This document shows positions 34,301 through 51,347 of a stretch of DNA of 64,000 bases, piece by piece. The DNA is taken from assembly GCA_041918515.1 (NCBI GenBank), contig JAYRVO010000170.1:3526-67525 (forward strand), in the 5' to 3' direction. This stretch comes from Chloroflexota bacterium. Its GTDB lineage: Bacteria; Chloroflexota; Anaerolineae; J102. The number at the start of each line of letters is the position of its first letter. The stretch's first letter is position 1. The translations under genes were made by a program, and so were the position numbers. The notes under the pieces are model-generated. The model made no database searches and was not told the DNA's origin. It saw only the letters and a program-made list of their open reading frames with translations.

Positions 34301-36632
34301 CAGCGACCAGGCACCGTTGGCCGGACAGTGGCAATCGCTGGACTTGTCGCAAGACCCGAACGACTCGCGCGATTGGGTGGGCGTGCTGGACCTGCAAGGA
34401 ACTTCATCTGCGCACTTGCGCTACATGGTGCAGGCAGCCAATGGTGTTGGCCTGGTCTCGTTGAACACCAACAAGGGCGCCTACTTCCTGCCGGATACCG
34501 ATCCGGCCACCCCGTCGGCACGGCCCGAAGACGCTACTCCGCCCGACCCCGTGGAATTGGTCTTGCTCAGCCCAACGTCCAGCGGTGAGTATGGCACCGA
34601 TGTGACTTTCTCGGCCCGCCTTACCCGCAATGGGGCGCCGTTGGTGGGTGAAACGCTGGAGTTCGGGCTCACCAGCCAGCGCCAATCGGCAGTCACGGGC
34701 GCCAACGGCATCGCCACGGTCACGCTAACGGTGATCGGCGACCCCGCAGATGACACCATCCGCGTCACCTATCCGGGCGCCCCCGGTCTGACCCCAGCGG
34801 CGAACGCAGCGCCATTCACGATCCAGCCCATCCCCACCCTCCTGCAAGTGCTGACCCAAACGCCGACCTTCAGCACAGGCGGCCCAGCCGACCTGTCCAT
34901 TGCCCTCACTGACGCCACTGGCCGGCCGCAGCCGTACAAGTCCGTGCTGATCGTCGTCACCAACGGTGGCGGCGGCGTTGCCTTTGCACAGGCTGTGCAA
35001 ACCGATCTCTACGGCAACGCCCATCTGCGCACGGTCAACCTGGCCGACGGCAGCTATCAGGTGCATGCCTACTTTGCCAGCCGCGTCACGTTGCCTGGCA
35101 TTGGCACGGTGGATATGCGCCTGCCGCGCTTCACCCCCATCCAGACGCCGGCCATTGGCCAACCTCCCGTCGTCATTCGCACCAACACGCCGCCGGTGGC
35201 GCGGCCTGGTGGCCCCTACGACGTCAATGAAGGCGGAAGCGTCGTGCTGAATGGCAGCGCCAGCTCGGATGCCGATGCGGGTCAGGTGCTGACCTTTGCC
35301 TGGGATCTCAACCACAACAGCGGCTTCGAGGTGCAAGGCCCCACACCGACGATGTACGCCACCATGCTCAATGGCCCGGCATCCGATACGGTGCGCCTGC
35401 GCGTGTGCGACCCGATCGAGTGCACGATCGCTACGGCCACGCTCAATATCCGCAACGTGCCACCGACGATCATCAGCATCGCCAACAACGGCCCTGCCGA
35501 TCCCAATCAGACGGTTACGATCTCTGTCACCGCCGACGATCCGGTCGATGTGCTGAACTACAGCTTCGACTGCGATAACAACGGCGTCTACGAGATTGGG
35601 CCCCAGGCCAGCTCACAGGCCGGCTGCTCCTATACGATGCCGGGCAACTACACGGTCAGAGTGCGGGTGCAAGATGGCGCCGCTGCGGTCACGGGAACGA
35701 CGATCGTGAACATCAAGGCCAAAGAGCCGCCAACCGTCAACGCCGGCCCCGATCTGGTTGGCTTTGCCGGGGTTTCGCTCGCTTTTGCCGGCTCCTACAC
35801 TAACCCGCAGGGCGCGCCGCCGTACACCTTCACCTGGACCTTCGGCGATGGCGGCACGGCCACCGGCGCCCTCAACCCCCTGCACACTTACAACACTACG
35901 GGCGTGTTTACGGCCAAACTGACCGTGCGCAACGGCTACAACCTCGAAGGCAGCGACACAGCCCGCATCACCATTTTGCCGAACTACCTGACCTACTGCA
36001 TCCTGGCCGGCAACGACATGGTCAAGCTAGATAAAGATAGCACGTTCACCAACTGTCGCATCGGCGCCGCTCAGCAGATCGATGTCAAGGCCAGCAGCAC
36101 ATTCAACAACAGCCCGCTCAGCCCTATGCTTGGCCCCATTTCCTGGCAGCCCCTGAATCTGACCGCTGGGACCCAAAAAATCCAGGTCGAGAAGAACGGG
36201 ACCGAAACGCTTGCTCCGGGCAGCTATGGCAATCTGGAAATGAAAGATGGCGCCACACTCATCCTCACTGACGGCCACTATCGCTTCCAGGAGTTCAAGA
36301 CGCACAAGAACCCTGCACTTGTTTTCAACCTGGGCGGTGGCAGCATCGTGATCGACGTCGTCGGTGATGTCGAGTTTGGCGATGAAGCACGCTTCTCGAT
36401 CAACGGCGGTGATGCCAGCGACGTGCTCTTCCGGTCGATGGGCAACCATCTGAAGCTCAAGAAAGATGGTCAATACCTGGGCACTTTCCTGGCGCCGCAA
36501 GCAAAGATCACTTTGGAGAAGGGCAACACCCTGACCGGGGCGCTGTTCGGCAAAGCGATTGACATTGACAAGGAAAATGCTGTAACCTACCGGCTGGCGA
36601 CCGATGCGTTCGTCATGTTGTACGGCGAGTAA
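28344..36632 (+). CDS. giant secreted multidomain protein (2762 aa): signal peptide, two CSLREA domains, a right-handed beta-helix with polymorphic-membrane-protein-type repeats, about 19 PEMFT repeats, a caspase-like His/Cys peptidase domain, three PKD domains and an ice-binding-like (DUF3494-type) C-terminus
   Basis: Signal peptide MRRLFVLIVIVLAAFLFVDHTAVRA. GECTLRAAVQEAN and NCTLREAINAAN match the CSLREA domain. The GGHFSS...SNGCHSGY His/Cys dyad resembles clostripain/gingipain-like peptidases. PKD motifs are present (WDLNHNSGFE, FTWTFGDGGT). The C-terminal 200 aa resemble the ice-binding-like fold. The RBS is AGGAG. Confidence 0.8.
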   Translation: MSSRPDFGWHDRATLPFTMRRLFVLIVIVLAAFLFVDHTAVRANSFTVNSTADVVDANPGDGVCETATPGECTLRAAVQEANAFGGDDEITLPAGTYTLTLAGSGDGGGDLDHGSCCDRVTITGAGSAVTTISAAGLGDRIFDIQNGTLTLTGVTLTGGNVVGHGGAILFSETSGGAELSDVVITGNSATASGGGVYIGTGSLSVVNSTISNNQAGGDGGGIFTSLMTNVILENSQVSGNTAVGGGNGLGLEGGTANVTLLDTSTADNISLASNAQLILDGAIGGSLDGVIDGVGTVTKIGTGTYTLSQWNNLSGPNPATGPFDIQAGILHITHPLALGNFFNGVTTVQNGATLLYDGQPQNGVYYMPDWRLTLNGAGVNGQGALHFVAGGAGFQGPITLATDSTIRDDAPSYNPDHLQGAITGPGSLTKTGSGRIMLHTGTNTYGGATIVQQGDLNVHVSGAIPATSDVTVAAGASLSIGDYPDNFAFPSGPVNQTVATLQGSGQIYLGGPLGAGALTVGNASDFTFDGTFADSGGVGSLIKTGAGAMILTHPGGNWAGSLTIQQGVVQTENLAGNANIALGAASLTVNMTADGVYNGVISGTGGLIKTGANTLTLTGANTFSGLTDVQAGRLNINGTHAGNVAVTGAGAALGGTGTINGTVSVAAAGFLSPGNSPGILNVGDTTLTAGSTFEVEITGNTPGVGGYDQLNVTGFVVIDTGAPGVTLSSLFPAPPYTPQLGDQYVIINNDDSDLVTGTFAGLPEGATINADFGGSLYSGVISYVGGDGNDVVITVITVQRTFVVNATADTDDGTCNALNCTLREAINAANAHVNAATPDAIHFNIPGAGPHTVQPTTALPAITNAVIIDGSTDPNGAIGLDGSLAGAGVPGLAISSSGSALTGLGITGFSDAGVSMLAGTGNVFIANRIHTNGGLGIDLGNDGVTRNDFLDADGGPNQRQNAPILQRVYAALGGLRVQGVLNSAANTTYRVDLYANTTCDRSFYGEGESVLGQIAVTTNAQGNGYFSTLLPTQPNGVALTATATQNPGTGLANTSEFSQCAVVGPNNDTWANAYPVSLTPVAVGESSGSASQYISASGQTRWFKFAAAPNSTVIIDLSSLPANYDLTLFRDIAKTYDRLRQPQDVNELALLSAEFAPEMFTPEMFTPEMFTPEMFTPEMFTPEMFTPEMFTPEMFTPEMFTPEMFTPEMFTPEMFTPEMFTPEMFTPEMFTPEMFTPEMFTPEMFTPEMFTPDRRYYAGALAQSAVAVSAFEGTAPESAVANTWNESGEFYVNVTGRNGAYDPTAPFDLRVTVLGAECNGLTVLDAAPNLGILPNGGYATLFLVDSQRMGVDYSAIASQLNTLAGHPAVNGVIVDVSQFSEIAAANAQADQLYQCVYAKNIVAYGIKAVVDAYRAANPSLRYIVPVGNDDVIPFFRYPDQALLANESGYVPPVLETTASQASLRHGYGLSQDTYGAAIELQRRNTRLPLPELAVGRLVETPAEINATIAAFLASNGTLPTPSRALVTGYDFLSDAATAIQQDLTAGLGVGGSVTPLIDAATTAPVNGWTADDLRTALLESGRHDLIYLGGHFSSFSALAADNKTRVLASELLASSVDMRNAIIFSNGCHSGYNLVAGHAVPNVSIEPDWAQVFAAKGAILIAGTGYQYGDTDFTEYGERLYFQFSRELRRGSGVVSVGEALVRAKQVYLSETAEMRPIHEKTLLTATLFGLPMTTVDMPGERYNPASGVTLVSLTPVATNPGAMLGLKTYDLTVTPNLVRVDKPLQNIVDNSLTNTVYYQVANSDRLVINPGEPVLPLDLHKLRATDTLVRGLGFRGGSYTDVLNVIPLTGAATTELRGIHTPFISSVFYPVTPWDVNYFDTLANSVAGGFIGVGAIPAQFRSNGPSSVDGTMRVYNSMNFRLFYSSNTAAYENQTYDITNIPALAGPPAISKVTSAANGGVQVAFRVTVTGDPSAGIQAVWVTYTSDQAPLAGQWQSLDLSQDPNDSRDWVGVLDLQGTSSAHLRYMVQAANGVGLVSLNTNKGAYFLPDTDPATPSARPEDATPPDPVELVLLSPTSSGEYGTDVTFSARLTRNGAPLVGETLEFGLTSQRQSAVTGANGIATVTLTVIGDPADDTIRVTYPGAPGLTPAANAAPFTIQPIPTLLQVLTQTPTFSTGGPADLSIALTDATGRPQPYKSVLIVVTNGGGGVAFAQAVQTDLYGNAHLRTVNLADGSYQVHAYFASRVTLPGIGTVDMRLPRFTPIQTPAIGQPPVVIRTNTPPVARPGGPYDVNEGGSVVLNGSASSDADAGQVLTFAWDLNHNSGFEVQGPTPTMYATMLNGPASDTVRLRVCDPIECTIATATLNIRNVPPTIISIANNGPADPNQTVTISVTADDPVDVLNYSFDCDNNGVYEIGPQASSQAGCSYTMPGNYTVRVRVQDGAAAVTGTTIVNIKAKEPPTVNAGPDLVGFAGVSLAFAGSYTNPQGAPPYTFTWTFGDGGTATGALNPLHTYNTTGVFTAKLTVRNGYNLEGSDTARITILPNYLTYCILAGNDMVKLDKDSTFTNCRIGAAQQIDVKASSTFNNSPLSPMLGPISWQPLNLTAGTQKIQVEKNGTETLAPGSYGNLEMKDGATLILTDGHYRFQEFKTHKNPALVFNLGGGSIVIDVVGDVEFGDEARFSINGGDASDVLFRSMGNHLKLKKDGQYLGTFLAPQAKITLEKGNTLTGALFGKAIDIDKENAVTYRLATDAFVMLYGE
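31811..32100 (+). repeat. about 19 tandem copies of the 15-bp unit gccggagatgttcac, encoding (PEMFT)n
   Basis: Visible directly in the sequence. The period is 15 bp with synonymous variation (aca/acg/acc, gaa/gag). Confidence 0.95.
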
Positions 36633-36670
36633 GACATCTATACTGAGTCCAAGGTGGAATCCGCAGGTCA

Positions 36671-36701
36671 GAAACCCGGATTCTGCGAGAATCCGGGTTT
36701 C
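36671..36701 (+). terminator. hairpin terminator after the giant gene (13-bp perfect stem), followed by a second GC-rich hairpin at 36735-36768
   Basis: GAAACCCGGATTC-tgcgag-AATCCGGGTTTC. The second hairpin is GCGGGGCGGGTTT..AAACCCACCCCGT. Confidence 0.55.
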
Positions 36702-36789
36702 TCGCTGCGCTCTTCACTTTGGAATGAGTTTAGAAAAGCGGGGCGGGTTTTAGTCCAAACCCACCCCGTCCACCAGCACGGGATGACAC

Positions 36790-37275
36790 ATGAGCTTGCG
36801 GACCTTTTTCGAGTACCCGACCGAAATAGCCGCCGAACAAGAGGACGCCCTGCTCTTCCTGCCGCAATGGACGGAAGAGCAGTGGCGCAAGCTGTCCACC
36901 TACACCGGCAAGCTGCGCCTGAGTCCTGGCGATGACTTGATCCGCATGGGTGAGTCGGATCGCTCGTTCTATATCGTCACTGCCGGCCAGTTCGAGATTC
37001 TCATTCCCCGCAAAGGATCGAGGCAACTCCAGCGTACACAGATTCGCGAGGCGGGCACGGTCGTGGGCGAACAAGCGTTCATCGACGGCAAATCGCGCTC
37101 GGCCACGGTGCGGGCGCTCACGACTGCCGAGGTGTTGCGCATCAACCCGACCGCATTCGAGGTGCTATCGGCCCGTGAGCCGGATCTGGCCCGTGACATT
37201 TTGCTCGACCTGGCCCGCCTGCTGTCGATCAAGCTGCGCCAGGCCAATACCTTCATCGCCAATTGGGTCAAGTAG
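36790..37275 (+). CDS. cyclic nucleotide-binding (CAP-effector-domain) protein
   Basis: cNMP-binding fold with ...GESDRSFYIVTAGQFEI...GEQAFIDGKSRSATVRALT. Confidence 0.75.
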   Translation: MSLRTFFEYPTEIAAEQEDALLFLPQWTEEQWRKLSTYTGKLRLSPGDDLIRMGESDRSFYIVTAGQFEILIPRKGSRQLQRTQIREAGTVVGEQAFIDGKSRSATVRALTTAEVLRINPTAFEVLSAREPDLARDILLDLARLLSIKLRQANTFIANWVK

Positions 37276-37280
37276 CGGCA

Positions 37281-39935
37281 ATGACGGTCACACAGACGCC
37301 TTTCCCCAATTTCATGCAGTTGCGCGCCGAGTCGCGCGTGCCGTCATGGATGTGGCAGGTCGCACGTATCTTGGGTTTGGTGATAGCGCTGGGGCTCGTT
37401 CTGATGTTGTTCATCGCTCCAGCCATGGGGTTGAAGCTCTTCTGGGGGGTGGCGGTTCCTGTGCTGCCGCTGGTATTCGTGGCCGCCCCCGGCTTGTGGC
37501 GAAATACTTGTCCGATGGCCACGCTCAACCAGCTTCCCCGCCTGTTCAATCTCACGCGCGGGTTGACGCTGCCAAAATGGCTGCAAGAATATGGCTATGT
37601 GATCGGGTTCATCCTGTTTTTCGTGCTGGCTTCCAGCCGCAAGTGGCTATTCAACAGCAACGGTGCAGCCACGGGCATCCTGATGCTGGCAATGCTCGCC
37701 GCCGCCGGCATTGGCGGTTTGTTTTTCAAGGGCAAGAGCGGCTGGTGCAGCAACATTTGCCCGCTGTTGCCCGTACAACGCCTCTACAATCAGACGCCCT
37801 TTTCTTTGATCGGCAATAGCCACTGCGCGCCGTGTGTCGGCTGCACCAAAAACTGCTACGATTTCAACCCGCGCGTCGCCACCCTGGCCGATCATTACGA
37901 CGACGACCCCTACTATCGCAACTACCGGCGCTTCTTTGCCGCCGCCTTTCCTGGCTTCATCATCGCTTTCTTCACCCTGCCCAGTCCACCCACTCTATCC
38001 ATTCCCCTGTTCTATGCCGCATTGGCAGCCTATTTGCTGGCGAGCGTGGGAGTTTATTACGTGGTGGACACCTTCGTGAAGGCGACTCCGTTCAAGATCA
38101 CGACCGGTTTTGGGGCGCTGGCGCTTAACCTGTTTTACTGGTTTGTCATCCCACTGTGGCTGGGCAATGTCACGGGCTTGCTCGGCAGCGCCCCCGGCGC
38201 CCTCCCCCTGATCTGGCTGGCCTGGCTGCTTCGCCTCGGCCTCTTGACCCTGACGCTCATCTGGCTACAACGTTCGTTCGCCAAGGAGCCGATCTTCATC
38301 GCCCAGCTGATGCCGAGTGAGCCCACGCGCGTCTCGGCGGCGGCGGTGCGGGTGCTCGACAAAGCCAGTGAAGGCGCCATCGAAGTAGTCCTGGCCCCGG
38401 ACGAAAGACGCCTGCTAACCGAGCCGAAGCGCACCCTGCTGGAAGTGGCCGAGCGCAACGACGTGCGCATCGAAGCCGGCTGCCGCATGGGCGTGTGCGG
38501 GGCCGATCCCATCGCCGTTCTCAGCGGCGTCGAAAACCTGGGCGACTTGAAAGCGGATGAGAAATCGACGTTGGAACGGTTGGGGTTGGGCGGAAACGCC
38601 CGCATGGCGTGCATGGCGCGTGTGCACGGCCCAGTCACATTCACGCTCGACCTCAAGCAGGCGAAGGAAGCGGCGGCGGCGCCAGCCCAAACTCACGATG
38701 AGAACGTCCACACCGTCGTCATCATCGGCAACGGCGTGGCCGGCGTGACCGCAGCCGACTACGTGCGGCGCTATCATCCAACGTGCGAGATCAACCTGAT
38801 CGGGCGCGAGAGCCATCACTTTTACAACCGCATGGGCATCGCCCGGCTGATCTACGGGCGCTCGGCCATGAACGGACTCTTTTTGCAACCGCACGAATGG
38901 TACGAGCAGAAGCACATTACGGCCTGGCTCAACACATCGGTTCAAGCCATCGATCCCGATCGACACCGGGTCAGCCTGGCCACCGGCGAAGAACTGCCTT
39001 ACGACCGCCTGATTCTGGCCACCGGCAGCAGCAGCTATGTGCCGCCCATCGCCGGCTTCGACCGGCCAGGTTGCTTCGTACTGCGCGAAGCCGACGACGC
39101 CATCGCCCTGCGCGCCTACATCCAAACGCATCGCGCCCGCCACGCCGTAGTGGCCGGCGGCGGACTGCTGGGCCTGGAAGCGGCGTATGCTTTGAAACAG
39201 TTGGGGATGCGCGTGACGGTGCTGGAGCGCTCCGACCGTCTGCTCAAACGCCAACTCGACGTTCGCGGCAGCGCCCTGCTGCGCCAATATCTGGAAGCAC
39301 TGGGCATGGCCTTCGTGCTCGAAGCCGAGTGCGCAGCCGCCGAAGGCAGTCCCGCCGGCGACACCAACCTGGCGGCGGTGAGCTTGAAGGACGGACGCCA
39401 GCTCCCCGCTGAAGTGTTGCTTGTGGCAGCCGGGATTCGCCCCAACACCGATATAGCCCAAGCGATGGGTCTGGCTTGTGAGCAAGGGATCATCGTCGAT
39501 GCCGGCATGCGCGCCAGCCTGCCCGACATCTTTGCCGCCGGAGATGTATGCCAGTTCGAGGGCAAGCTTCCGGGCCTGTGGCCGGTGGCAGTCGAGCAGG
39601 CGAAAGTCGCAGCCATCAACGCCGTTGGCGGCGACCAGGAATACACACCCGTGGTGCCGGTCACCACCCTGAAAGTGGCCGGCGTCGACCTGACATCCAT
39701 CGGCCGCATCGAGGCCAGAGATGCCAACGAACAAACCATTGCCCTCGAAGACGGGGACAATCACTTTTATCGTAAGCTGGTATTGGCTGACAACAAAATC
39801 GCCGGCGCCATCCTGCTGGGCTACCCTCAGCTTGCCCCGGCTGTGACTGCGGCGATCAAGCAGCAGCGCGACGTGGAGCCGCACCTGCAATCGTTGCAGC
39901 GCGGCGACTGGTCTGTGCTCGAGCAAACTGACTGA
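37281..39935 (+). CDS. fusion protein: a NapH/NosR-like polytopic membrane domain with a CxxCxxCxxxC 4Fe-4S motif, a 2Fe-2S ferredoxin-like domain and an FAD/NAD(P)-dependent pyridine nucleotide-disulfide oxidoreductase
   Basis: HCAPCVGCTKNC and CSNICP lie within a region of multiple TM helices. The 2Fe-2S motif is EAGCRMGVCGADPIAV...ARMACMARV. FAD and NAD Rossmann motifs are present (VVIIGNGVAGVTAA and AVVAGGGLLGLEAAYAL). The ATG at 37281 lies 6 nt after the upstream stop. Confidence 0.75.
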   Translation: MTVTQTPFPNFMQLRAESRVPSWMWQVARILGLVIALGLVLMLFIAPAMGLKLFWGVAVPVLPLVFVAAPGLWRNTCPMATLNQLPRLFNLTRGLTLPKWLQEYGYVIGFILFFVLASSRKWLFNSNGAATGILMLAMLAAAGIGGLFFKGKSGWCSNICPLLPVQRLYNQTPFSLIGNSHCAPCVGCTKNCYDFNPRVATLADHYDDDPYYRNYRRFFAAAFPGFIIAFFTLPSPPTLSIPLFYAALAAYLLASVGVYYVVDTFVKATPFKITTGFGALALNLFYWFVIPLWLGNVTGLLGSAPGALPLIWLAWLLRLGLLTLTLIWLQRSFAKEPIFIAQLMPSEPTRVSAAAVRVLDKASEGAIEVVLAPDERRLLTEPKRTLLEVAERNDVRIEAGCRMGVCGADPIAVLSGVENLGDLKADEKSTLERLGLGGNARMACMARVHGPVTFTLDLKQAKEAAAAPAQTHDENVHTVVIIGNGVAGVTAADYVRRYHPTCEINLIGRESHHFYNRMGIARLIYGRSAMNGLFLQPHEWYEQKHITAWLNTSVQAIDPDRHRVSLATGEELPYDRLILATGSSSYVPPIAGFDRPGCFVLREADDAIALRAYIQTHRARHAVVAGGGLLGLEAAYALKQLGMRVTVLERSDRLLKRQLDVRGSALLRQYLEALGMAFVLEAECAAAEGSPAGDTNLAAVSLKDGRQLPAEVLLVAAGIRPNTDIAQAMGLACEQGIIVDAGMRASLPDIFAAGDVCQFEGKLPGLWPVAVEQAKVAAINAVGGDQEYTPVVPVTTLKVAGVDLTSIGRIEARDANEQTIALEDGDNHFYRKLVLADNKIAGAILLGYPQLAPAVTAAIKQQRDVEPHLQSLQRGDWSVLEQTD

Positions 39936-39956
39936 GTTTGGATAGAGAAGATAGCT

Positions 39957-42900
39957 ATGGATACACCCAGCGCCTATATCCCAATTGACCGGCGTCACGC
40001 CCTGGCGCGCGGCGCAACACTACCGGAGCGCGCCGAGGGCGCGGCCCTCTTTGCCGATATCTCCGGCTTCACGCCGCTGACCGAGGCATTGGCGCTCGAA
40101 CTTGGCCCGCGTCGCGGCGCCGAAGAACTCACCGTCCACCTCAACCGCGTCTACGACGCCCTGATTGCCGAATTGGAACGCTACGGCGGCAGCGTGATCG
40201 GCTTCAGCGGCGACGCCATCACTTGCTGGCTGGATGGCGACGATGGCCGTCGCGCCACCGCCGCCGCACTGGCCATGCAACAAGCGATGCGCCGGTTCCA
40301 TGAAGTGCGCACGCACTCCGGGCGCATCGTCTCATTGGGGATGAAAGCGGCTGTGGCGACGGGGCCGGTGCGGCGCTTCGTCGTCGGCGACCCTGAGTAC
40401 TGTCTGGTGGACACAATGGCGGGAGCAACGCTGGAGCGGCTGGCCGCAGGCGAACACCAGGCCGAGCGCGGCGATGTCATCGTCGACGAGGCCACCGCTG
40501 ACAACTTGGGAGCCGGGCTCGTCGTCTCGGCCTGGCGGCAGGAGTCCGAAACCGGCCGCCGTTTCGCCGCCATCAGCGAGCTCAACCTGGCCGTGCCGGA
40601 AACCCCTTGGCCCGATCTTGGCGAAGCGGCTTTGGCGGGCGAGATCACATCATCTTGGGTGCTTCCACCCGTCTACGAGCGGCTGAGCGCCGGATTGGGC
40701 GAATTCCTGGCCGAGCTACGGTCGGCATTCGCCCTCTTCTGCCGCTTCACAGGCATTGACTACGACCGTGATCCAGAGGCGCCACAGAAGCTGGATCGTT
40801 TCGTCCGCGAGGTCGAGCGCATCCTCGCCCGCTTCGACGGTAGCCTGATCCAGCTCACCATCGGCGACAAGGGCAGCTATCTCTACGCCGCGTTCGGCGC
40901 GCCGATCGCCCACGAAGATGACGCCGAGCGTGCCTGCGCCGCCGCGCTAGAAATCCAAGAGCTGGCGACGACGCTGTCCTACATTGACGTGCTGCAAGTG
41001 GGCGTGACGACGGGCCGAATGCGCACGGGCGCCTATGGCAGCCGCACCCGGCGCACCTATGGCGTGCTGGGCGACGCCGTCAACCTGTCGGCGCGGCTGA
41101 TGTCGGCGGCGCGGCCAGGCCAAATCCTGGTCAGCGACGCCGCCCGCGCCGCTGCTGGCGATCGTTTCGCCTGGGAGGTGTTGCCGGCGATCCGCGTCAA
41201 AGGCAAGAGCGAGCCGGTGGCGCTGGCGCGGCTAGTGGGGCTGAAGCGAGCCGAAACTGTGCGCCTGCAGGAGCCAGTCTACCATCTGCCGATGGTGGGC
41301 CGCGCCACAGAACTGGCGCTCGCCGGCCAGCAGATCGAGCGGATGGCCGCCGGCCAAGGCCAGATCATCGCCATCACCGCCGAAGCCGGCATGGGCAAGA
41401 GCCGCCTGGCCGCCGAAGTAATGCGCCTGGCGCGCAACCGGCTACGCGGGCTGGTCGCCCTGGGAGGCGAATGCCAGTCATACGGCGCCACCACCGCCTA
41501 CCTGGTGTGGCAGAACATTTGGCGTGGATTCTTTGATTTGGATGGGGGTCTTTCGCTCGAAGCCCAGGTTGCCGCCATCCACGAACAGCTAGAGCGGCTC
41601 GATCCCAACCTGCTACCGCGCTTGCCCTTGCTCGGCGCCGTGCTCAACCTCGCCATCCCCGACAATGATCTGACACGCGGCCTGGACGCCAAGACCCGTC
41701 GCTCCGCGCTCGAAGACATGCTGGTGCAACTCGTGCGCGCCCGCGCCCGCACAGCGCCTGTGTTGCTCGTGCTGGAAGATTGCCACTGGCTGGACGACCT
41801 CTCGCGTGAGCTGATCGGTGTTGTCGGGCGCGCCATCGCCGGCCTGCCGGTGCTGATGCTACTGGTCTACCGCCCGCCCGATCAAGCCGGCGAGCAGGCG
41901 CCACCCGTTGGCCAATTGCCGCACTTCACCGAAATCGCCCTGACCGAGTTCACCCCCGCCGAAACCGAGCAGCTCGTGGCGCTCAAGCTGGCGCAGTTCT
42001 TCGGCGAGGGCACGGCTGTGCCCTCAGCGCTGCTGGAACGTGTGAGCACGCAGGCCGCCGGCAATCCATTTTACATCGAGGAGCTGCTCAACTATCTGAA
42101 AGATCTCGGCATTGCCCCGACCGACACAGCCGCCATCGCCGCCGTGGATTTGCCCACGAGCATCTATGCGCTGGTGCTCAGCCGCATCGATCAGCTCAAC
42201 GAAAGCCAGCAGTTGACGATCAAGATTGCCAGCGTCATCGGCCGCCTGTTTCGCGCCGCCATGGTCTGGGGCATCTATCCCGATCTGCCTACCGGCGAGG
42301 TGCAGCGCAACCTCGATCTGCTGAACAACCTGGAATTGACTCCCCTCGACACGCCCGACCCCGAGCTGGCCTATCTGTTCAAACACATCACCACGCAGCA
42401 GGTGGCCTACGAGAGCCTGCTCTACGCCACCCGCGAAATGCTGCATGAACAGATTGGCGGCTACATCGAGCGCGCCTACGCCGCCACGCTCGACCAATAC
42501 ATCCACTTGCTGGCCTATCACTACGATCACAGCGCCAACCTGGAGAAAAAGCGACACTACCTGCTGCAGGCTGGCCGGCTGGCGCGCCGCGCCTACGCCA
42601 ACAGCGCCGCCATCATCTACTTCGAAAAAGCGTTGCCACTGCTTGAGGGCCGCACCCTGGTGGATGCGCGGCTGGATTTGGGCAAGGTGCTGGAATTGAC
42701 CGGCGCCTGGGATGTCGCTCGTGACCAGTACGACACGGCGCTGGCCGAGGCAGCCGGTCTCGACGACCGCTCGGCCGTGGCCTGGTGCCAGACGGCCCTG
42801 GGCGAACTGAGCCGCAAGCGCAGCCGCTACGATGAGGCGCTCGACTGGTTCGGGCAAGCGCTGATAACCTTCGATAATCTTGGCGATCAGGCGGGGATGG

Positions 42901-43637
42901 GGCAGTTGTTGCACTACACCGGCACGCTGGCCGCGCAGCAGGGCAATTTTGTGCTCGCCAACCAGCGCTACACCGCCAGCCTGGAGCTGCGGCGGACGCT
43001 GGGCGACCGCGAGAATGAGGCCAACGTCCTCAACAACCTGGGCATTGTGGCCCGCTATCTGGGCAACAATGACGCCGCCCGCGGCTACCATGAGGCGGCG
43101 CTGGTCATTCAGGAGGAGTTGGGCAACCGCTGGACGACCGCAGCGATCCACAACAATCTCGGGCACATGGCGATTGACAGCGGCGACCTGGGCTATGCCC
43201 GCCGCCAGTTGGAGCAGGCGCTACTGGTGTTCCGCGAGATCGGCGAGCGCTGGGCGATCACCAATACGCTGCACAATCTGGCGAACGTGGCGCGCGATGA
43301 GGGGGATGCGTCTGAGGCACGGCGGCTTTATCGGGAAAGTCTGGATGGCTGGCAGATGCTCAACGACCGTTGGGGATTGGCGTACTGGCTGGAGGATGTG
43401 GCGCTGCTTCACGTTCGCCAGCAAGCGCCGACCCGGGCCTTCGAGCTGATCGGCGCGGCCGATGGGCTGCGCGAGGCTGTCGGCAATCCGCGTCCCCCCG
43501 CCTATGCCGGCAAACTTGAGACACGGCTGGCGCCGGCCGCCGCGTTGCTGACCGAGACCGACCGTGCTGCGGCCCTTCTGCGCGGCCGCGGCCTCTCGAT
43601 TGATGCCGCTATCACCCAGGCGTTTGCCGATGGGTAG
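39957..43637 (+). CDS. adenylate/guanylate cyclase with two tandem class III cyclase-homology domains, a STAND (AAA) ATPase and C-terminal TPR repeats
   Basis: CHD1 is LFADISGFTPLTE...FSGDAITCW. CHD2 is LIQLTIGDKGSYLYAAFGAP...GDAVNLSARL. The P-loop is AEAGMGKSRLAAE. TPR-like NLG(I/H)...G motifs recur toward the C-terminus. Confidence 0.85.
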   Translation: MDTPSAYIPIDRRHALARGATLPERAEGAALFADISGFTPLTEALALELGPRRGAEELTVHLNRVYDALIAELERYGGSVIGFSGDAITCWLDGDDGRRATAAALAMQQAMRRFHEVRTHSGRIVSLGMKAAVATGPVRRFVVGDPEYCLVDTMAGATLERLAAGEHQAERGDVIVDEATADNLGAGLVVSAWRQESETGRRFAAISELNLAVPETPWPDLGEAALAGEITSSWVLPPVYERLSAGLGEFLAELRSAFALFCRFTGIDYDRDPEAPQKLDRFVREVERILARFDGSLIQLTIGDKGSYLYAAFGAPIAHEDDAERACAAALEIQELATTLSYIDVLQVGVTTGRMRTGAYGSRTRRTYGVLGDAVNLSARLMSAARPGQILVSDAARAAAGDRFAWEVLPAIRVKGKSEPVALARLVGLKRAETVRLQEPVYHLPMVGRATELALAGQQIERMAAGQGQIIAITAEAGMGKSRLAAEVMRLARNRLRGLVALGGECQSYGATTAYLVWQNIWRGFFDLDGGLSLEAQVAAIHEQLERLDPNLLPRLPLLGAVLNLAIPDNDLTRGLDAKTRRSALEDMLVQLVRARARTAPVLLVLEDCHWLDDLSRELIGVVGRAIAGLPVLMLLVYRPPDQAGEQAPPVGQLPHFTEIALTEFTPAETEQLVALKLAQFFGEGTAVPSALLERVSTQAAGNPFYIEELLNYLKDLGIAPTDTAAIAAVDLPTSIYALVLSRIDQLNESQQLTIKIASVIGRLFRAAMVWGIYPDLPTGEVQRNLDLLNNLELTPLDTPDPELAYLFKHITTQQVAYESLLYATREMLHEQIGGYIERAYAATLDQYIHLLAYHYDHSANLEKKRHYLLQAGRLARRAYANSAAIIYFEKALPLLEGRTLVDARLDLGKVLELTGAWDVARDQYDTALAEAAGLDDRSAVAWCQTALGELSRKRSRYDEALDWFGQALITFDNLGDQAGMGQLLHYTGTLAAQQGNFVLANQRYTASLELRRTLGDRENEANVLNNLGIVARYLGNNDAARGYHEAALVIQEELGNRWTTAAIHNNLGHMAIDSGDLGYARRQLEQALLVFREIGERWAITNTLHNLANVARDEGDASEARRLYRESLDGWQMLNDRWGLAYWLEDVALLHVRQQAPTRAFELIGAADGLREAVGNPRPPAYAGKLETRLAPAAALLTETDRAAALLRGRGLSIDAAITQAFADG

Positions 43638-43670
43638 GCGAAACCTGACACTCGAAAGGAACTTCGGAGG

Positions 43671-45896
43671 ATGACCCTACAACCATCTGCGCCTGTCGGC
43701 ATGATTGCCACTTTGCGCCGGTCGCTGGCGGCCTGGCGACGGCACTGGCGGCTTGGCCTGCTGATCCTGCTGGCCCTGTTCATCCAGCAGCTATTTCAGA
43801 CCTTTTTCGCGTACGCGCTCAAGTTGATCGTAGATTCCGTTCAGAAGGGCACAGCGATGTCGGGGCTGGTGGTGATTCTGTTCGCCCTGGCGTTCGGGTT
43901 CGTCATCAACGCCTTTGCTGCGCTCGGTGGCGATCGACTGGTCGCGCGAGCATCAGGCCTTCTCATGGGCGACTTGCGTCGCCAGCTCTACGAGAAGCTG
44001 CTCGGAATGTCGGCCGCCTTCTATGCGCGCATGCCGCCGGGCGACATCCTTTCGCGCTTCACGAGTGATCTGGATGTGATCCAACTCGGCTTCACGATGG
44101 CGACCTTCAACACCACGCTGTTGCTGCTGGGGCTGATCATCAACTTGCCGGTGATGTTCTCGCTCTCAGGGCTACTCGCCGTGGAGACGTTACTCCTCCT
44201 GCCACTGATCCTCATTTTCGCCCGCTATTTTGTGCCGAGGGCAGGCGAGACGACCTATCTCTTCAAGCAGGCGCAAGGCGCGCTTACAAATACGGTGCAG
44301 GAAACGGTGCGCGCCCAGATGGTCGTCAAGGCGTTTGGCCTGCAGGAGTTCTTGAACCATCGTTTCGGCGGTGCGGTGGCAGACCTGACCGAGGCGACTG
44401 TGCGCTCCAGGTTCGCCATTGCTATCGTCAGCAAGGGATCGGCCCTGCTGCTGCTGCTGATCCAGATCGTGGTGGTGATGACCGGCGCGCTCCTGGCGCT
44501 GCGCGGCGAGATGTCGGCCGGGTCGCTGGTGGCGTTCATCAGCATCCTCGGCGTGGTCACCAACGACACGCTTCAGTTCGCCAAGCTCGTCGTGCCCGCG
44601 CTGATCGACGCCGGCAGCGGCTTCCGCCGCCTTGATGAGATTCTGCAAGCAGCGTCCACCGTGGTTGATCAGCCGGATGCGCGGCCGCTGGCGCGTCTCA
44701 GCAACGAGATCCGCTTTGACCAGGTTGACTTCGGCTATACCCGCGAGCATCTCCACCTGTCACATCTCTCCCTGACGATCCGCCAGGGCCAGGCGGTCGC
44801 ATTTGTCGGCCCGAGCGGCAGCGGCAAGAGCACCGTGCTCGGCCTCTTGCAGCGTTTTTACGAGCCATTGCGAGGACGCGTCCTCCTGGATGACCAGGAC
44901 ATCTGCGCGGCGACCCAGGATTCTTTGCACAGCCAGATCGGCGTGGTCTTTCAAGAGAACTTCCTGTTCAACACCTCTATCCGGGAGAATATCCGCCTGG
45001 CGCGGACGCAGGCGACCGATGACGAGATCGAAAAGGCTGCTCGCGCCGCCGAAATCCATGATCTGATCATGACATTGCCGCACGGCTATGACACAGGCGT
45101 GGGCGAGGCTGGCGGACGACTCTCTGGTGGCCAACGACAGCGCATCGCCATCGCTCGCGCCATCCTGCGCGACCCGGCCATCCTCATTCTCGACGAGGCG
45201 ACCTCCGCGCTGGACCCCGGCACCGAGGCAGCCATCAACGAGACGATCGGCCATCTCACCCGCGGGCGCACCGTCATCTCCGTCACACATCGGCTGGCCT
45301 CGGTAACGGGATTGGATCAGATCTTTGTCATGCAGAAGGGCAAGCTGGTCGAGCAGGGTACGCACCGCTCGTTATTGGAACAGCGCGGTCTCTATTACCA
45401 TCTTTGGCAGAAACAGAGCGGCTTCGAGATCAGCGGCGACGGTCGCTTCGCTCAGGTGGATGCCGTGCGCCTCAAGCGCATGCGTCTTTTCGAGCAGGTT
45501 GAGATGGACAGGCTATCTCATTTCGCCGATCAATTCCACTCGGAATTCTTCGACGCCGGGCGGAATGTCATCGTGCAAGGTGAAGTGGGTGACAAGCTTT
45601 ATTTGATCGTGCGCGGGACCGTCGATGTTCTGGTGTTGGACCAGGAAGGTAAGGAACAGCATATCGAAAGGCTGGAGGACGGCGATCATTTCGGCGAGAT
45701 GGCATTGTTGCTCGATCAGCCGCGCAGCGCCACCATTCGCACGGTGACGCCGAGTCTCTTGCTCAGCCTATCGCGCGAGCAGCTTTTCCTAGTGCTCGAA
45801 CGTTTCCCAGAATGCCGGCCTGCCATCGAGCAACGCATTGCCCAAAGCCAATCCAATCTGGCCGCATTGCAGAGTCGCGCGGCAAAACCGTCATGA
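43671..45896 (+). CDS. ABC exporter (fused TMD and NBD) with a C-terminal cyclic nucleotide-binding domain
   Basis: Six TM helices, Walker A GPSGSGKST, signature LSGGQRQR and Walker B ILILDEATS. A cNMP-binding domain follows (LYLIVRGTVDVL...GEMALLLDQPRSATIRTV). Confidence 0.85.
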   Translation: MTLQPSAPVGMIATLRRSLAAWRRHWRLGLLILLALFIQQLFQTFFAYALKLIVDSVQKGTAMSGLVVILFALAFGFVINAFAALGGDRLVARASGLLMGDLRRQLYEKLLGMSAAFYARMPPGDILSRFTSDLDVIQLGFTMATFNTTLLLLGLIINLPVMFSLSGLLAVETLLLLPLILIFARYFVPRAGETTYLFKQAQGALTNTVQETVRAQMVVKAFGLQEFLNHRFGGAVADLTEATVRSRFAIAIVSKGSALLLLLIQIVVVMTGALLALRGEMSAGSLVAFISILGVVTNDTLQFAKLVVPALIDAGSGFRRLDEILQAASTVVDQPDARPLARLSNEIRFDQVDFGYTREHLHLSHLSLTIRQGQAVAFVGPSGSGKSTVLGLLQRFYEPLRGRVLLDDQDICAATQDSLHSQIGVVFQENFLFNTSIRENIRLARTQATDDEIEKAARAAEIHDLIMTLPHGYDTGVGEAGGRLSGGQRQRIAIARAILRDPAILILDEATSALDPGTEAAINETIGHLTRGRTVISVTHRLASVTGLDQIFVMQKGKLVEQGTHRSLLEQRGLYYHLWQKQSGFEISGDGRFAQVDAVRLKRMRLFEQVEMDRLSHFADQFHSEFFDAGRNVIVQGEVGDKLYLIVRGTVDVLVLDQEGKEQHIERLEDGDHFGEMALLLDQPRSATIRTVTPSLLLSLSREQLFLVLERFPECRPAIEQRIAQSQSNLAALQSRAAKPS

Positions 45897-45951
45897 TCGG
45901 CATAGCCGACCTTGCTAACAAGGTTACGCGGGCTACGTGCAGGAGTAGAAA

Positions 45952-46569
45952 ATGTCTGTGAGCGATCCTGATTTCGAAGGCGCCGTCGCCTACGCGCTTG
46001 GGCGGCTGACCGTCGAACTACCCAACTGCTATGTTTATCATAGCGTGGTTCATACGCGGGACGAAGTGCTGCCGGCCGTCGAGCGTCTGGCCACGGCAAG
46101 CAACATCTCGGGCAGAGACTTCGGCTTGTTACGGGTGGCTGCCGCTTTCCACGATATCGGGTTTATCTACCGCGCCCAAGGCCATGAGATTTGCGGCGTC
46201 CGTATTGCAGCCCAGGTGCTGCCGGGATTCGGCTTCGATGATGAAGCCATCGAGTCTATCCTGGGCATGATCCTGGCCACGCGCCTGCCCCAAAGCCCCC
46301 GCAACCTGATGGAAGAGTTGTTGGCGGATGCCGATCTGGACGCTTTGAGACGAGACGATTTCTTGGAACGCAATGCCGCCCTCGAACAGGAAATGGAGCG
46401 GCTGGGCCGCGGGGTGGAGCCGGCCCAATGGTACGCCGATCAGCTTGCGTTTATGCGCGGCCACAGCTACTTCACCGCCGCGGCCCAAGAACTGTGTGGG
46501 CCAGGAAAGGCGCGCAATCTGCGACGTCTGGAAACGCGGTTGGCGGCCGCGACGAAGTCAAGGAGGTGA
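45952..46569 (+). CDS. HD-domain phosphohydrolase
   Basis: The H..HD motif AAAFHDIGF is present. RBS AGGAG 7 nt upstream. It is the last gene of the co-directional cluster. Confidence 0.65.
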   Translation: MSVSDPDFEGAVAYALGRLTVELPNCYVYHSVVHTRDEVLPAVERLATASNISGRDFGLLRVAAAFHDIGFIYRAQGHEICGVRIAAQVLPGFGFDDEAIESILGMILATRLPQSPRNLMEELLADADLDALRRDDFLERNAALEQEMERLGRGVEPAQWYADQLAFMRGHSYFTAAAQELCGPGKARNLRRLETRLAAATKSRR

Positions 46570-46647
46570 CATGATTTTGCGCGAATTGTGGTGCAGGATT
46601 TCGGCAAGGGGATGCCCAGAGCGTGTGGCGCAGGTGTTCGATGCTTT

Positions 46648-47367
46648 CTACTCGACGCGCCCGATCTCTCCTTCGATCACGACCTGATAGGTTCGGAGCG
46701 GGTCGCGGGCGGGGCCGGCCAATACGGCGCCATTGCTCACGTCGAACTGGGAGCCATGGAGAAAACAGGTGACAGTCTTGCCGTCGAGATCGCCTTCACT
46801 GAGAGGGCCGCCGACGTGCGTGCAGGCGTCTTGCGTGGCATAGAAATGGCCTTCGACGTTGAAGACGGCTACGTTGTTGCTATCGACCTGGACGCGGCGG
46901 ATCTGTCCCGGTGGAATATCAGCGAGGCGGAATTGGTTGGGTTGGAGAGTCGGCGATGGAGCTGCCGCTTGTCCTGCGCTGGTCGTAGCGGGTTCGCTGA
47001 CGGGGATTTTCAGATACACCTGGCCATCGCTCACCACGATCGGGTAGTTGTCCAGTTTGGCGCTGGGGTCCAACAGACATTGCCCAGTAGTCACGCTATA
47101 GGGTAAACCATGCCAGGGGCAGACGAGTGTGTCGTTTGTCAGGCTGCCCGTGGCCACCGGGCCGCCGCGATGCACGCAACTGTTGCGCAAGGCATACCAC
47201 TGGCCTTTGTGATGAAAGACGCCGATAGAGAGGCCCTCTACTTGCACGATCTTGCGCTCTCCATCGGGAATCTCGGCGGCGACGGCAATGCGAACTTCCT
47301 TCAACGTCGCCGGCGGGGCTTCGCCCATCTCGTGGGCAACCGCTTCCTGCGCCATCTCATCCACCAA
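46648..47367 (-). CDS. tandem Rieske [2Fe-2S] domain protein (two NirD-like Rieske modules)
   Basis: CVHRGGP...CPWHG and CTHVGGP...CFLHG. The start is uncertain (47355 or 47328) and overlaps the 3' end of the upstream gene. Confidence 0.75.
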   Translation of the reverse strand: MVDEMAQEAVAHEMGEAPPATLKEVRIAVAAEIPDGERKIVQVEGLSIGVFHHKGQWYALRNSCVHRGGPVATGSLTNDTLVCPWHGLPYSVTTGQCLLDPSAKLDNYPIVVSDGQVYLKIPVSEPATTSAGQAAAPSPTLQPNQFRLADIPPGQIRRVQVDSNNVAVFNVEGHFYATQDACTHVGGPLSEGDLDGKTVTCFLHGSQFDVSNGAVLAGPARDPLRTYQVVIEGEIGRVE

Positions 47368-47963
47368 GTCCTGATCGACGGGCGCTGGGCCTGGAATGTC
47401 TCGGCCTCGCGCTCGTTGCCGTAGGCGCGGGCGAGCAGCTCGAGTAGAACCATCAAAAGCTTGTCCCAGGCTTCCACGGCTCGGAGTTCCAGATCATCGT
47501 CGATCCCGCGCAGCTCGCGAACGAGCGCCTCGCTGATGGCGTGCTGCATCATCCCTACCTGGCCGATGACGTAGCGTTCGGGGATGTAGATGTTGGGATC
47601 AGCACCGTGGGCGGTGTGTGCGCGACCGACGTAATCGACATAACGAGCATATTCGTCATCGAACAGGCCGTTGGCGGTGCGCAGCCAGAAATTGGTCAGA
47701 TGGCGCATGCGCAGTTCGATGTAGTCGTGATTGAGGCTGCCATCCTTTTTGAGGAAGAAGCGGCGCGTGGGTGGATAGCGCAAGAGGTGGGCGTAGAATT
47801 GGGCCACGATCTGGGGCAGATGCTTGACCACCAAGGGGCCGGTCTGGCGAATGATTTGGGTGTCCTCTGTGCTGAAGCCAACGAATTCGGCCATGTAGCG
47901 AAAGTAGCGACCGGCGTCTTCGCCGCCTTGCTTGGAAGAGATCTGCAGTGGGGTGAGGCTCAT
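47301..47963 (-). CDS. protoglobin-family globin (globin-sensor domain) protein
   Basis: YMAEFVGFSTEDTQIIRQTGPLVVKHLPQIVAQFYAHLL...FFLKKDGSLNHDYIELRMRHLTNFWL matches the protoglobin pattern. The Arg-rich C-terminal tail may be an overlap artefact. Confidence 0.65.
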   Translation of the reverse strand: MSLTPLQISSKQGGEDAGRYFRYMAEFVGFSTEDTQIIRQTGPLVVKHLPQIVAQFYAHLLRYPPTRRFFLKKDGSLNHDYIELRMRHLTNFWLRTANGLFDDEYARYVDYVGRAHTAHGADPNIYIPERYVIGQVGMMQHAISEALVRELRGIDDDLELRAVEAWDKLLMVLLELLARAYGNEREAETFQAQRPSIRTWWMRWRRKRLPTRWAKPRRRR

Positions 47964-48049: not shown

Positions 48050-49132
48050 TTACAGTCCCATCAACCGTTTCAGAATCGACTGCATGATCCAAACGATCAG
48101 GGGCAAGAGGATCGCGGTCAAGAAGCTCGCCAGCGTGCCCGGTTGCCAGGGCCAGGTGGGAATCTTGGCGATCACGCCCCGTTCGACGAGCAGGGCGTCT
48201 ATGATTTCGCGCAACGGGCCCAACGAAGGCGTCGCCTCGGTCTCGCCCTCTCCGGTTGCATCGATATAGTGGTGGAGCGCTGCAAATGCTGTTTGGAGAC
48301 GATGGTCGATCTCTTCCAGATGTTGTGTCTTGATGTTGTGAATGCGGGTATGGATGTCGAACAGCGTCGTCAAAAACGAAGCCGTGATGCCAGCGAGGAT
48401 GAGAGCGGCGCCGCTGATCCAGGGGATATTGCGCGCGAGCGCCGGATAAAAGATCACGCCGGAATAGATGATGATCAGCCAGCCGATGCCCATGCGCAAA
48501 GTCAGGGCAGAAAAGGCGTAGAGTTGGTTGGCGCGAAATAGATCGAGTTTGGTCGCCTGCCCATAGGTGCGACGGATGAGGCGGAGCTGCCGGAAAGTGA
48601 GGTAGATGGCAACGAAGGCTATTGCCATGCCCAGCATACTTAGGGTCATGTTGACGATGGCGGCGAGCGGCGTGACCATGAATGGCTGGGCTGTCTCGGG
48701 GAACAAGCGCAAGGAGCCAAATGCCAACAGCGCCCCTGCGATATTGCCGAAGAGCACGCCGCGCATCGGCATCACCGTGAACTCGTGGCGAAGTCTGGTG
48801 AAGCCGGCGTCATCTTGGTCGAGGGCAGGACGAAACGCAACGAGCGCCTCGGCAGCAGTATGCTCGATATAATAGACGAATCCCAGGCAGTAGGGCATCC
48901 ACGTATTCACGAGCAGAATGCGCGTATCCAAATGCCAGCGCGGCACGATGCCCTCATGCCAGCAGATGATGTGCACCAATGTCACGGGCACAATCCACAA
49001 CCCGGCCAGCACCACAGGAATCGACACGGGCAGTCTGTCCATCCAGCGCAACAAACGATCGATCCAGCTAGGCGGATAGGGTTTGATCATAGATGGTTGT
49101 GATGGGATTGAGGCGATTTCGTCCGTATTCAT
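48050..49132 (-). CDS. hypothetical polytopic membrane protein
   Basis: A 360-aa ORF with multiple TM helices and no family call. Confidence 0.5.
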   Translation of the reverse strand: MNTDEIASIPSQPSMIKPYPPSWIDRLLRWMDRLPVSIPVVLAGLWIVPVTLVHIICWHEGIVPRWHLDTRILLVNTWMPYCLGFVYYIEHTAAEALVAFRPALDQDDAGFTRLRHEFTVMPMRGVLFGNIAGALLAFGSLRLFPETAQPFMVTPLAAIVNMTLSMLGMAIAFVAIYLTFRQLRLIRRTYGQATKLDLFRANQLYAFSALTLRMGIGWLIIIYSGVIFYPALARNIPWISGAALILAGITASFLTTLFDIHTRIHNIKTQHLEEIDHRLQTAFAALHHYIDATGEGETEATPSLGPLREIIDALLVERGVIAKIPTWPWQPGTLASFLTAILLPLIVWIMQSILKRLMGL

Positions 49133-51200: not shown

Positions 51201-51347
51201 GCGAGTTTTCGGTGGAGAAGAGTAATCGATGTGTTCACGACATATCATACGTCGAATCCGGCGTTGTCGAAAGCGGGCGGCTGAGCAAATGGATGTGATA
51301 TACTCAGCTATCGATATTGGCGTTCGGATACATGGAGGCAAAAGCGG

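Follow-up and report, generated by a model that had tools for sequence, protein, structure and literature searches.

A five-gene cyclic-nucleotide cluster of a Chloroflexota bacterium, with a conserved pairing of a small nucleotide-binding protein and a membrane oxidoreductase

A stretch of 64,000 nt from a Chloroflexota bacterium (GenBank assembly GCA_041918515.1, contig JAYRVO010000170.1, positions 3,526 to 67,525 of the forward strand) was analyzed; it is called the window here, and all coordinates below are given in its numbering. The window contains a cluster of five plus-strand genes that span 36790-46569. The first gene, CNB161 (36790-37275, 161 aa), encodes a stand-alone cyclic-nucleotide-binding (CNB) protein without a DNA-binding domain, and it is followed by memOx (37281-39935), which encodes a fused membrane oxidoreductase of 884 aa (counted from the ATG; the open reading frame (ORF) itself begins with a TTG at 37263). 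Downstream lie the gene of a class III cyclase resembling soluble adenylyl cyclase (sAC) (39957-43637, 1226 aa), that of ABC-CNB, an ABC-B type half-transporter with the exporter fold (43671-45896, 741 aa), and that of HD205, a stand-alone metal-dependent phosphohydrolase of the HD superfamily (45952-46569, 205 aa). The genes are separated by gaps of 5, 21, 33 and 55 nt. An earlier reading, made from the letters and ORFs of the window by itself (the sequence-only reading), had described this close packing and operon-like spacing; the ORF check and independent gene calling on a Logan contig of identical sequence (SRR26835467), which gave the same five genes and the same gaps, agree with it. The five genes probably form one operon.

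Pfam and NCBIfam searches were run on the proteins of the cluster, and all of the domain assignments made before, among them the cyclase homology domains (CHDs), the CNB domains and the HD domain, held. Three Pfam scores were borderline (those of HD, of Fer4_5 and of the N-terminal CHD by itself), each of them backed by independent evidence. When the whole 64 kb were scanned in six frames with profile hidden Markov models (HMMs) and phmmer, no CNB or CHD domains were found beyond these genes. Since the rest of the window is without either domain, their clustering is real and above background, and it is practically certain that this is a genuine cyclic nucleotide monophosphate (cNMP) gene cluster with these domains. 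An Rfam search of 26-52 kb returned no matches.

The CNB161 protein scored 56.7 bits against Pfam cNMP_binding (gathering score, GA, 27.5). Its phosphate-binding cassette, VGEQAFIDGKSRSAT, and that of ABC-CNB, FGEMALLLDQPRSAT, are both of the G-E...R-[ST]-A type. Across 63 family members the CNB161 cassette (GEQAF.DG.PRSATVRA) was kept, with G-E and R-S-A-T retained, and the cNMP-contacting Gly-Glu and Arg-Ser/Thr-Ala residues were conserved in at least 80-95% of these homologues. No helix-turn-helix (HTH) was detected in CNB161 with the models of CRP (34 bits, cutoff 266) and FNR (21 bits, cutoff 228), and the protein ends about 30 residues past the CNB domain. CbpA of Pseudomonas aeruginosa is an example of a stand-alone bacterial cAMP-binding protein without a DNA-binding domain. 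CNB161 shares with such proteins and with CRP/FNR the CNB fold, the canonical cassette and the C-terminal helix; it differs from CbpA and CRP/FNR in that it consists of one CNB domain, is 161 aa long, has no HTH and is consistently encoded beside a membrane oxidoreductase.

Three parts of memOx were recognized, all on the plus strand: the N-terminal ~345 aa (37281-38315) form a membrane domain with a Cys-rich Fe-S site, positions 38418-38624 encode a ferredoxin domain of the 2Fe-2S type, and positions 38712-39866 encode an FAD/NAD(P)H domain, similar to NirB and ferredoxin reductases, together with Rubredoxin_C. The Pfam scores were 211 bits for Pyr_redox_2, 61 bits for Rubredoxin_C and 25.6 bits for Fer2, and 19.6-20.7 bits for Fer4_5, under its GA of 22. 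For the N-terminal ~345 residues about eight transmembrane (TM) helices were predicted (AF2 pLDDT 76). Seven Cys residues are invariant (C77-P78, C156-x3-C160-P161 and C182-x2-C185-x2-C188-x3-C192), which make up one CX3CP motif, the lone C77-P78 and one CxxCxxCxxxC motif; by a topology count that starts from the cytoplasmic flavoprotein domain, these residues would lie on cytoplasmic loops. The NapH and NosR membrane proteins (Fer4_5) likewise have CX3CP and CxxCxxCxxxC on cytoplasmic loops of a polytopic domain; their type is marked by CX3CP motifs and by two cytoplasmic 4Fe-4S motifs of the ferredoxin type. Invariant His pairs, which would suggest haem, were not found in the memOx family. 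The FAD/NAD(P)H half is like that of NirB/HcaD/rubredoxin-reductase-type flavoproteins, and in NCBIfam the C-terminal half scored 176 bits with the HcaD-type ferredoxin reductase and 308 bits with the N-terminal half of NirB. The NirB model (cutoff 578) was matched over positions 1-389 of 794 only; the sirohaem/4Fe-4S NIR_SIR domains of NirB are absent, and memOx stops after Rubredoxin_C. A database search gave more than 1500 relatives, of which the top 120 were full-length with 52-62% identity and came mostly from Chloroflexota metagenome-assembled genomes, and a profile of the N-terminal domain gave 1291 representatives at 50% identity. The oxidoreductase had been called unusual and embedded among the cNMP genes; it belongs instead to a large family, whose near-constant neighbour is a small CNB protein.

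The pairing of the two genes was followed in the contigs of relatives collected for comparison (the loci named L0xx and L1xx). These comprised 91 memOx loci: 6 from a genome scan, 5 from exact look-ups and 80 from a metagenome scan. The genome scan, made with the full-length memOx alignment, was flooded by generic NirB-type flavoproteins (pattern GGGLLGLEA), and its informative loci (L002-L007) include Streptomyces, Nocardia, Pseudonocardia and Solirubrobacteraceae; the metagenome scan was seeded with the N-terminal membrane domain only, which avoids this flood. Neighbours within 10 kb of memOx were found by tblastn with the window proteins. In 63 of the 91 loci a CNB161 homologue came right before memOx on the same strand, and in 2 it came right after; 3 loci were too truncated to be evaluated, which gives an adjacency in ~65 of 88 evaluable loci, with two or three further positives missed by the distance filter. 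The gaps between the two genes were mostly -14 to +25 nt. As a control, the NirB-type flavoprotein loci were reused, and ~3 CNB matches were observed in 1.25 Mb of these unrelated loci. De novo clustering of the flanking ORFs, which was noisy (long antisense ORFs in GC-rich DNA), gave CNB161 as the sole widely recurrent neighbour. The pair was found in Chloroflexota and, within the Actinomycetota, in Streptomyces and Solirubrobacteraceae. The only other recurrent neighbours of memOx were the cyclase (L082/L083, 41% identity; L086, 29%, 5 kb off) and HD205 (L082/L083), and a full-length ABC-CNB homologue was present in none of the 91 loci.

In the Pseudonocardia (L003 5523-8636) and Nocardia (L004) loci, in which CNB161 is absent, memOx carries an N-terminal FHA domain, which binds phospho-Thr, and PF00498 was found in 7 of the top 120 memOx matches (P0072, P0086, P0093, P0100, P0105, P0110 and P0118). 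The exchange of CNB for FHA suggests interchangeable regulatory inputs; memOx thus seems to come as a rule with a regulatory module, supplied either in trans (CNB) or in cis (FHA). Given the frequent adjacency, and the FHA fusion that sometimes occurs where CNB161 is absent, memOx is most likely the target of CNB161, and we hold with good confidence that the two act as a functional pair. They are the conserved core of the cluster, present in two phyla. No report of a CNB-oxidoreductase pairing was found in the literature. At one locus, L108, both arrangements were seen at once: memOx is fused to FHA there and also has a CNB gene upstream.

Based on the domain searches, the cyclase consists of the CHDs C1 (40032-40484) and C2 (40689-41213), a STAND P-loop NTPase (41292-41831) and a TPR array (42897-43424), all on the plus strand. 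Pfam Guanylate_cyc scored 59 bits (second CHD), AAA_16 62 bits and TPR_12 87 bits, and the N-terminal CHD by itself scored 20.2 bits (GA 21.9). When the first 430 residues were compared with all solved structures, human soluble adenylyl cyclase ADCY10 was the best match (E 8e-23), and HMMER aligned residues 26-176 with sAC 40-190 (C1) and residues 245-394 with sAC 281-429 (C2). Because both CHDs align to C1 and C2 of ADCY10, the tandem CHD is real, despite the score of C1 below GA. The metal-binding Asp residues of C1 are kept (D34 and D86, in FADISGFT and FSGDA); in C2 the first Asp is lost, and the Lys of DKG (D304-K305-G306) and the Asn and Arg of VNLSARL (N376, R380) are kept. All of these were invariant in three homologues (L082 and L086 among the loci), and the counterparts of D34, D86, K305, N376 and R380 in sAC are D47, D99, K334, N412 and R416. 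From this residue pattern it follows that the enzyme is a pseudo-heterodimeric cyclase with a single active site. Because of the conserved Lys, its product is taken to be cAMP, which we consider probable, rather than cGMP. In the STAND region the translation shows AEAGMGKS as Walker A and LLVLED as Walker B.

Full-length mammalian sAC (sACfl) has the same succession of C1-C2 and a STAND domain, and even in mammals the function of the STAND region still awaits an explanation (PMC12802110). For an sAC-like cyclase of Chloroflexus, activation by bicarbonate has been reported (Kobayashi 2004, cited in PMC11006738). ADCY10/sACfl, the Chloroflexus cyclase and cyanobacterial CyaC share with the cyclase of the window two unlike CHDs in one chain, the key residues and a STAND NTPase after them. 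Compared with sAC, the window cyclase differs in that its gene is clustered with those of presumptive effectors, as well as in three residues that are weighed below.

ABC-CNB scored 121 bits with ABC_membrane, 122 bits with ABC_tran and, for its C-terminal CNB domain (45546-45800, plus strand), 76 bits with cNMP_binding (GA 27.5). Its nucleotide-binding domain (NBD) is complete, with GPSGSGKST (Walker A), LSGGQRQR (signature), ILILDEATS (Walker B) and VTHRL (H-loop), and the protein remained under every NCBIfam equivalog cutoff (for example, HlyB 369 against 725 and MsbA 367 against 602). PF00027 was kept in 119 of the top 120 ABC-CNB homologues, which come from Chloroflexota, Acidobacteriota and Verrucomicrobiota; ABC-CNB is therefore an established but uncharacterised architecture. 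HetC of Nostoc, whose CNB domain is N-terminal, and the NHLP-bacteriocin ABC systems (TIGR03797/TIGR03896) likewise combine an ABC-B core with a CNB domain, whereas in ABC-CNB the CNB domain is C-terminal to the NBD, a C39 peptidase is absent and the gene is paired with an HD hydrolase gene.

The HD205 family comprises about 1050 stand-alone proteins, each of ~200 aa, and has the invariants Y29-H30-x3-H34...H67-D68...D128. These fit the motif of class I phosphodiesterases (PDEs), H(X)3H(X)25-35[D/E] (PMC4222275). Two results speak against a PDE: the Pfam HD score is 19.4 bits, under the gathering score of 22, and PDEase_I (PF00233) was not matched at E≤0.01. A PDB profile search with HD205 found no PDE, and the closest solved relative by sequence was 2pq7 (E 2.5e-5, 27 bits). 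Because PF00233 is not matched and the nearest solved sequence is 2pq7, HD205 is not a class I PDE by sequence. An hhalign comparison with a YedJ-type protein gave a probability of 47% (E 2e-4), and NCBIfam PRK10119 was not matched. In the fold comparison HD205 scored 17.4 with 2pq7 (160 residues aligned), 16.0 with RhoPDE (191 residues), 15.9 with YpgQ (172 residues), 12.9-15.5 with 16 further class I PDE catalytic domains (180-195 residues) and 13.9 with YedJ (169 residues), and at most 11 with Ppx/GppA, small alarmone hydrolases, HD-GYP and PgpH (about 120-150 residues). The identity to any solved structure is only 14-21%, and the catalytic domain of class I PDEs (PDE1-11, RhoPDE, LmjPDEB1) comprises ~330 aa as against the 205 aa of HD205. 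By this comparison the fold of HD205 is PDE-like or YpgQ-like.

Besides the 91 memOx loci, 8 loci anchored on HD or ABC homologues were examined (99 in total). The two closest ABC relatives, L171 and L172, both have the HD gene directly downstream of ABC-CNB: L171 carries, in this order, the cyclase (82% identity), a MacB-type ATPase-CNB, FtsX, ABC-CNB (78%) and HD (86%), and L172 carries HEAT-CNB, ABC-CNB (75%) and HD (63%), and a CNB-histidine kinase gene converges on them. At L167 a frameshifted cyclase (62-77%) is followed by HEAT-CNB, HD (62%) and a MalT-type LuxR regulator. The memOx locus L082 reads cyclase (41%), CNB161 (60%), memOx (61%), HD (47%) and CNB144, so that the CNB161-memOx pair (sub-module A) and the set of cyclase, CNB effectors and HD (sub-module B) are joined there too, in a gene order unlike that of the window. 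HD-anchored L169 has a 400-aa CNB protein two genes upstream; among the more distant ABC loci, L173 (ABC 59%) has a YedJ-type HD past an inserted integrase, and L174 (ABC 55%) has no HD. The HD proteins of L173 and of L086 (HD215) were tried as HD205 homologues; they are not family members and were left out of the counts.

Altogether, the cyclase occurs with CNB genes in four independent relatives, and an intact CNB gene is located within two genes of HD in 6 of 8 contexts, the window and L082 counted. The CNB proteins near HD are of four architectures (ABC-CNB, HEAT-CNB, CNB144 and the 400-aa protein); the common factor beside HD is therefore the CNB domain and not the transporter. The sequence-only reading had staked its case on these genes being co-located in relatives, and cyclase, CNB and HD genes were indeed found to recur together in L082/L083, L171, L172 and L167.

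Several further arrangements were observed around these genes. The extra genes of L171 (3371-6869), between cyclase and ABC-CNB, encode an ABC ATPase of the MacB/LolD type, which has a CNB domain at its C-terminus, and an FtsX/MacB_PCD permease; CNB-tagged transporters of two ABC classes have therefore been recruited to one module. Proteins with HEAT repeats and a CNB domain (or, instead, a small CNB protein with a HEAT protein after it) are encoded beside HD205 homologues at L167 5504-6757, L172 1-1800 and L082 13607-16932, and HEAT-CNB is another uncharacterised type of CNB effector. At L168 a decayed remnant of an ABC NBD (6691-6949), 61-66% identical to residues 390-475 of the window's ABC-CNB, lies directly upstream of the HD205 homologue, which suggests erosion of a former ABC-CNB/HD pair. 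At L173 a PycTM-domain protein (14793-15323; the TM domain of Pycsar anti-phage effectors) is encoded ~4.5 kb from the ABC-CNB homologue, near a phage integrase.

The genomic company of HD205 favours a cNMP substrate. The chief alternative is a cluster with no degradation arm, in which HD205 would be a nucleotide pyrophosphohydrolase of the YpgQ/YedJ type or a housekeeping HD hydrolase that rides with the exporter, whose substrate it might process, or that might clean up the nucleotide pool. YpgQ is an NTP pyrophosphohydrolase. The recurrence of CNB genes of four architectures within two genes of HD argues against it, and so does the alignment of HD205 over 180-195 residues with PDEs, as compared with 160-172 residues with 2pq7 and YpgQ. 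In addition, the residue in front of His30 is an invariant tyrosine (Tyr29), which corresponds to the Y of the PDE motif Y-H-N-x-x-H. On these grounds we regard the absence of a degradation arm as unlikely, and the chances that HD205 is a cNMP phosphodiesterase as about even.

Based on these results, we somewhat favour the reading of the locus as a cAMP second-messenger cluster in which two separable sub-modules are joined, and the cluster looks like a lineage-specific merger of sub-modules A and B. The cyclase would make the signal, with one composite C1/C2 active site under a STAND/TPR switch. CNB161, which appears translationally coupled to memOx, would most likely be its cAMP-dependent regulatory subunit, through a presumed contact of the two proteins. 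In memOx, electrons would pass from NAD(P)H/FAD by way of the 2Fe-2S domain to the Fe-S site at the membrane face; cAMP would then tune, in a direction that is likewise presumptive, the delivery of NAD(P)H electrons into the membrane, where the acceptor would probably be a quinone or some other lipophilic compound. The ABC-B exporter would sense the signal through its C-terminal CNB domain, and HD205, with its H-x3-H...HD...D metal site, would most likely hydrolyse cAMP and reset the circuit. A self-contained circuit of synthesis, sensing and degradation had been proposed before; the recurrence of cyclase and CNB genes, with HD alongside, agrees with this part of the proposal, and the links to the protoglobin and Rieske proteins and to the giant protein, described below, gained no support.

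Several observations weigh against the cAMP reading, besides the two HD205 results given above. In the HMMER alignment the cyclase has Gly and Ala where sAC has its bicarbonate ligands, K95 and R176, and the second substrate-specifying position, Thr405 in sAC, is Gly. The promoter and terminator scans gave results at shuffled expectation and therefore speak neither for nor against a single transcript; the operon reading rests on the spacing. Two of the four HD-anchored contexts, L168 and L170, are without an intact CNB gene, and at L170 nothing related was found near HD. In about 20 memOx loci a CNB neighbour and a recognised fused regulator are both missing. Most memOx loci also lack a cyclase or HD homologue, from which it follows that sub-modules A and B are joined only in this lineage.

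That most CNB-memOx loci have no cyclase within 10 kb is also what would be expected if the CNB domains bound another effector, such as ppGpp, 2-oxoglutarate or haem, and if the juxtaposition with the cyclase were an accident of this lineage. CNB domains can indeed take other ligands: that of HetC binds ppGpp, not cAMP (PMC10986499). Both CNB domains of the cluster, however, keep the cNMP-contacting Gly-Glu and Arg-Ser/Thr-Ala residues, and the association of the cyclase with CNB genes in independent relatives, as well as the absence of any further CNB or CHD gene from the window, makes another effector improbable.

Where cAMP signalling in bacteria departs from the CRP paradigm it is poorly understood, and the known effectors that act other than on transcription are few. 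All of the domain families of the cluster are already known, as are sAC-like cyclases in Chloroflexota; the conserved CNB-oxidoreductase pairing and the recurrent pairing of ABC-CNB with an HD protein of PDE-like fold are new. The locus is a compact circuit of a cyclase with sAC architecture, a CNB protein with a redox-enzyme partner, a CNB-tagged exporter and a small HD enzyme with a PDE-like fold. A joint proposal, which we put forward tentatively and think doubtful as a whole, is that CNB161-memOx performs cAMP-gated electron transfer, that HD205 is a compact bacterial counterpart of class I PDEs and that ABC-CNB and HD form a signal-termination unit. If this is true, CNB161-memOx would be a new class of cNMP effector, in Chloroflexota and Actinomycetota, that ties a second messenger to NAD(P)H/quinone redox flux. 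The HD205 family would be a bacterial counterpart or an ancestor-like relative of class I PDEs and, together with the cyclase, would make up a "eukaryote-type" toolkit for making and breaking cAMP; ABC-CNB with HD would end the signal in two ways, by efflux and by hydrolysis of cAMP. Should these links hold, cAMP would directly steer membrane electron flow and export, and class-I-like PDE chemistry would reach into bacteria; should they fail, the locus would still be a clean case of the modular assembly of a signalling operon.

Downstream of the cluster, four genes are encoded on the minus strand: a double-Rieske ferredoxin with NirD-like and HcaC-like domains (46648-47367), a single-domain protoglobin (47301-47963), orf360 (48050-49132, 360 aa, no Pfam or NCBIfam matches) and NadE, a glutamine-dependent NAD+ synthetase (49161-51431). 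The ferredoxin scored 131.8 bits with Pfam Rieske, in two stretches, and above the cutoffs of both the NirD (86 bits) and the HcaC-type (134 bits) models; the protoglobin scored 100.8 bits with Pfam Protoglobin. The sequence-only reading had wired the cluster to O2/NO or redox sensing through these two proteins. In its fullest form this would be one circuit in which they are the inputs and in which the double Rieske (Rieske2) might be the redox partner of the reductase domain of memOx. The Rieske gene does lie 78 nt from the HD205 stop, and the chemistry is plausible in view of the HcaD/NirB-like half of memOx and the HcaC-type and NirD matches of Rieske2. Both genes, however, are convergent with the cluster and co-directional with orf360 and NadE, a search of 10 kb around the anchor genes in all 99 loci (91 of memOx, 8 of HD or ABC) gave no Rieske2, protoglobin or NadE homologue, and memOx already holds a fused 2Fe-2S ferredoxin domain of its own. 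Because these genes are near no module gene in relatives, the O2/NO wiring is unsupported; a single circuit that includes them seems very improbable, and we are fairly confident that the protoglobin and the double Rieske are not part of the module. The pairing of memOx and Rieske2 as reductase and ferredoxin was rejected in view of their zero co-occurrence. The four genes form an apparent minus-strand unit, NadE-orf360-protoglobin-Rieske, within which the protoglobin ORF, with its Arg-rich low-complexity C-terminal tail, runs into the beginning of the double-Rieske ORF (47301-47367); the shared stretch measures 28-67 nt, according to which start is taken.

Upstream, the gene of a giant secreted protein (28344-36632, 2762 aa, PKD/PATR/DUF7305) ends 157 nt before the cluster. 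The spacer contains two strong GC-rich hairpins (36670-36702 and 36739-36768), the second of which is terminator-like (12 bp stem), and it is likely the upstream boundary of the transcription unit. The giant gene is thus located upstream of the cluster, as had been described, but a link between them is opposed by this spacer and has no comparative support; like the protoglobin, the Rieske protein and NadE, the giant protein was judged, from the gene neighbourhoods, to be a neighbour rather than a component. A very large secreted repeat protein was observed beside the module in three loci (the window; L082 1523-4993; L086 12641-14062); that of L082 is ~30% identical to the giant protein of the window over ~700 aa, and the domains in the relatives are cadherin, Big_9 and HemolysinCabind. 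The giant protein was also considered as a possible substrate of the ABC exporter. Further upstream of the giant gene, the window encodes a MalT-like protein with a STAND ATPase, TPR_MalT and a LuxR/GerE HTH (23871-26567), of the same type as the MalT-type LuxR regulator that directly follows the HD homologue at L167 (7656-10395), and this MalT-like protein may be a transcriptional output of the module or one of its regulators.

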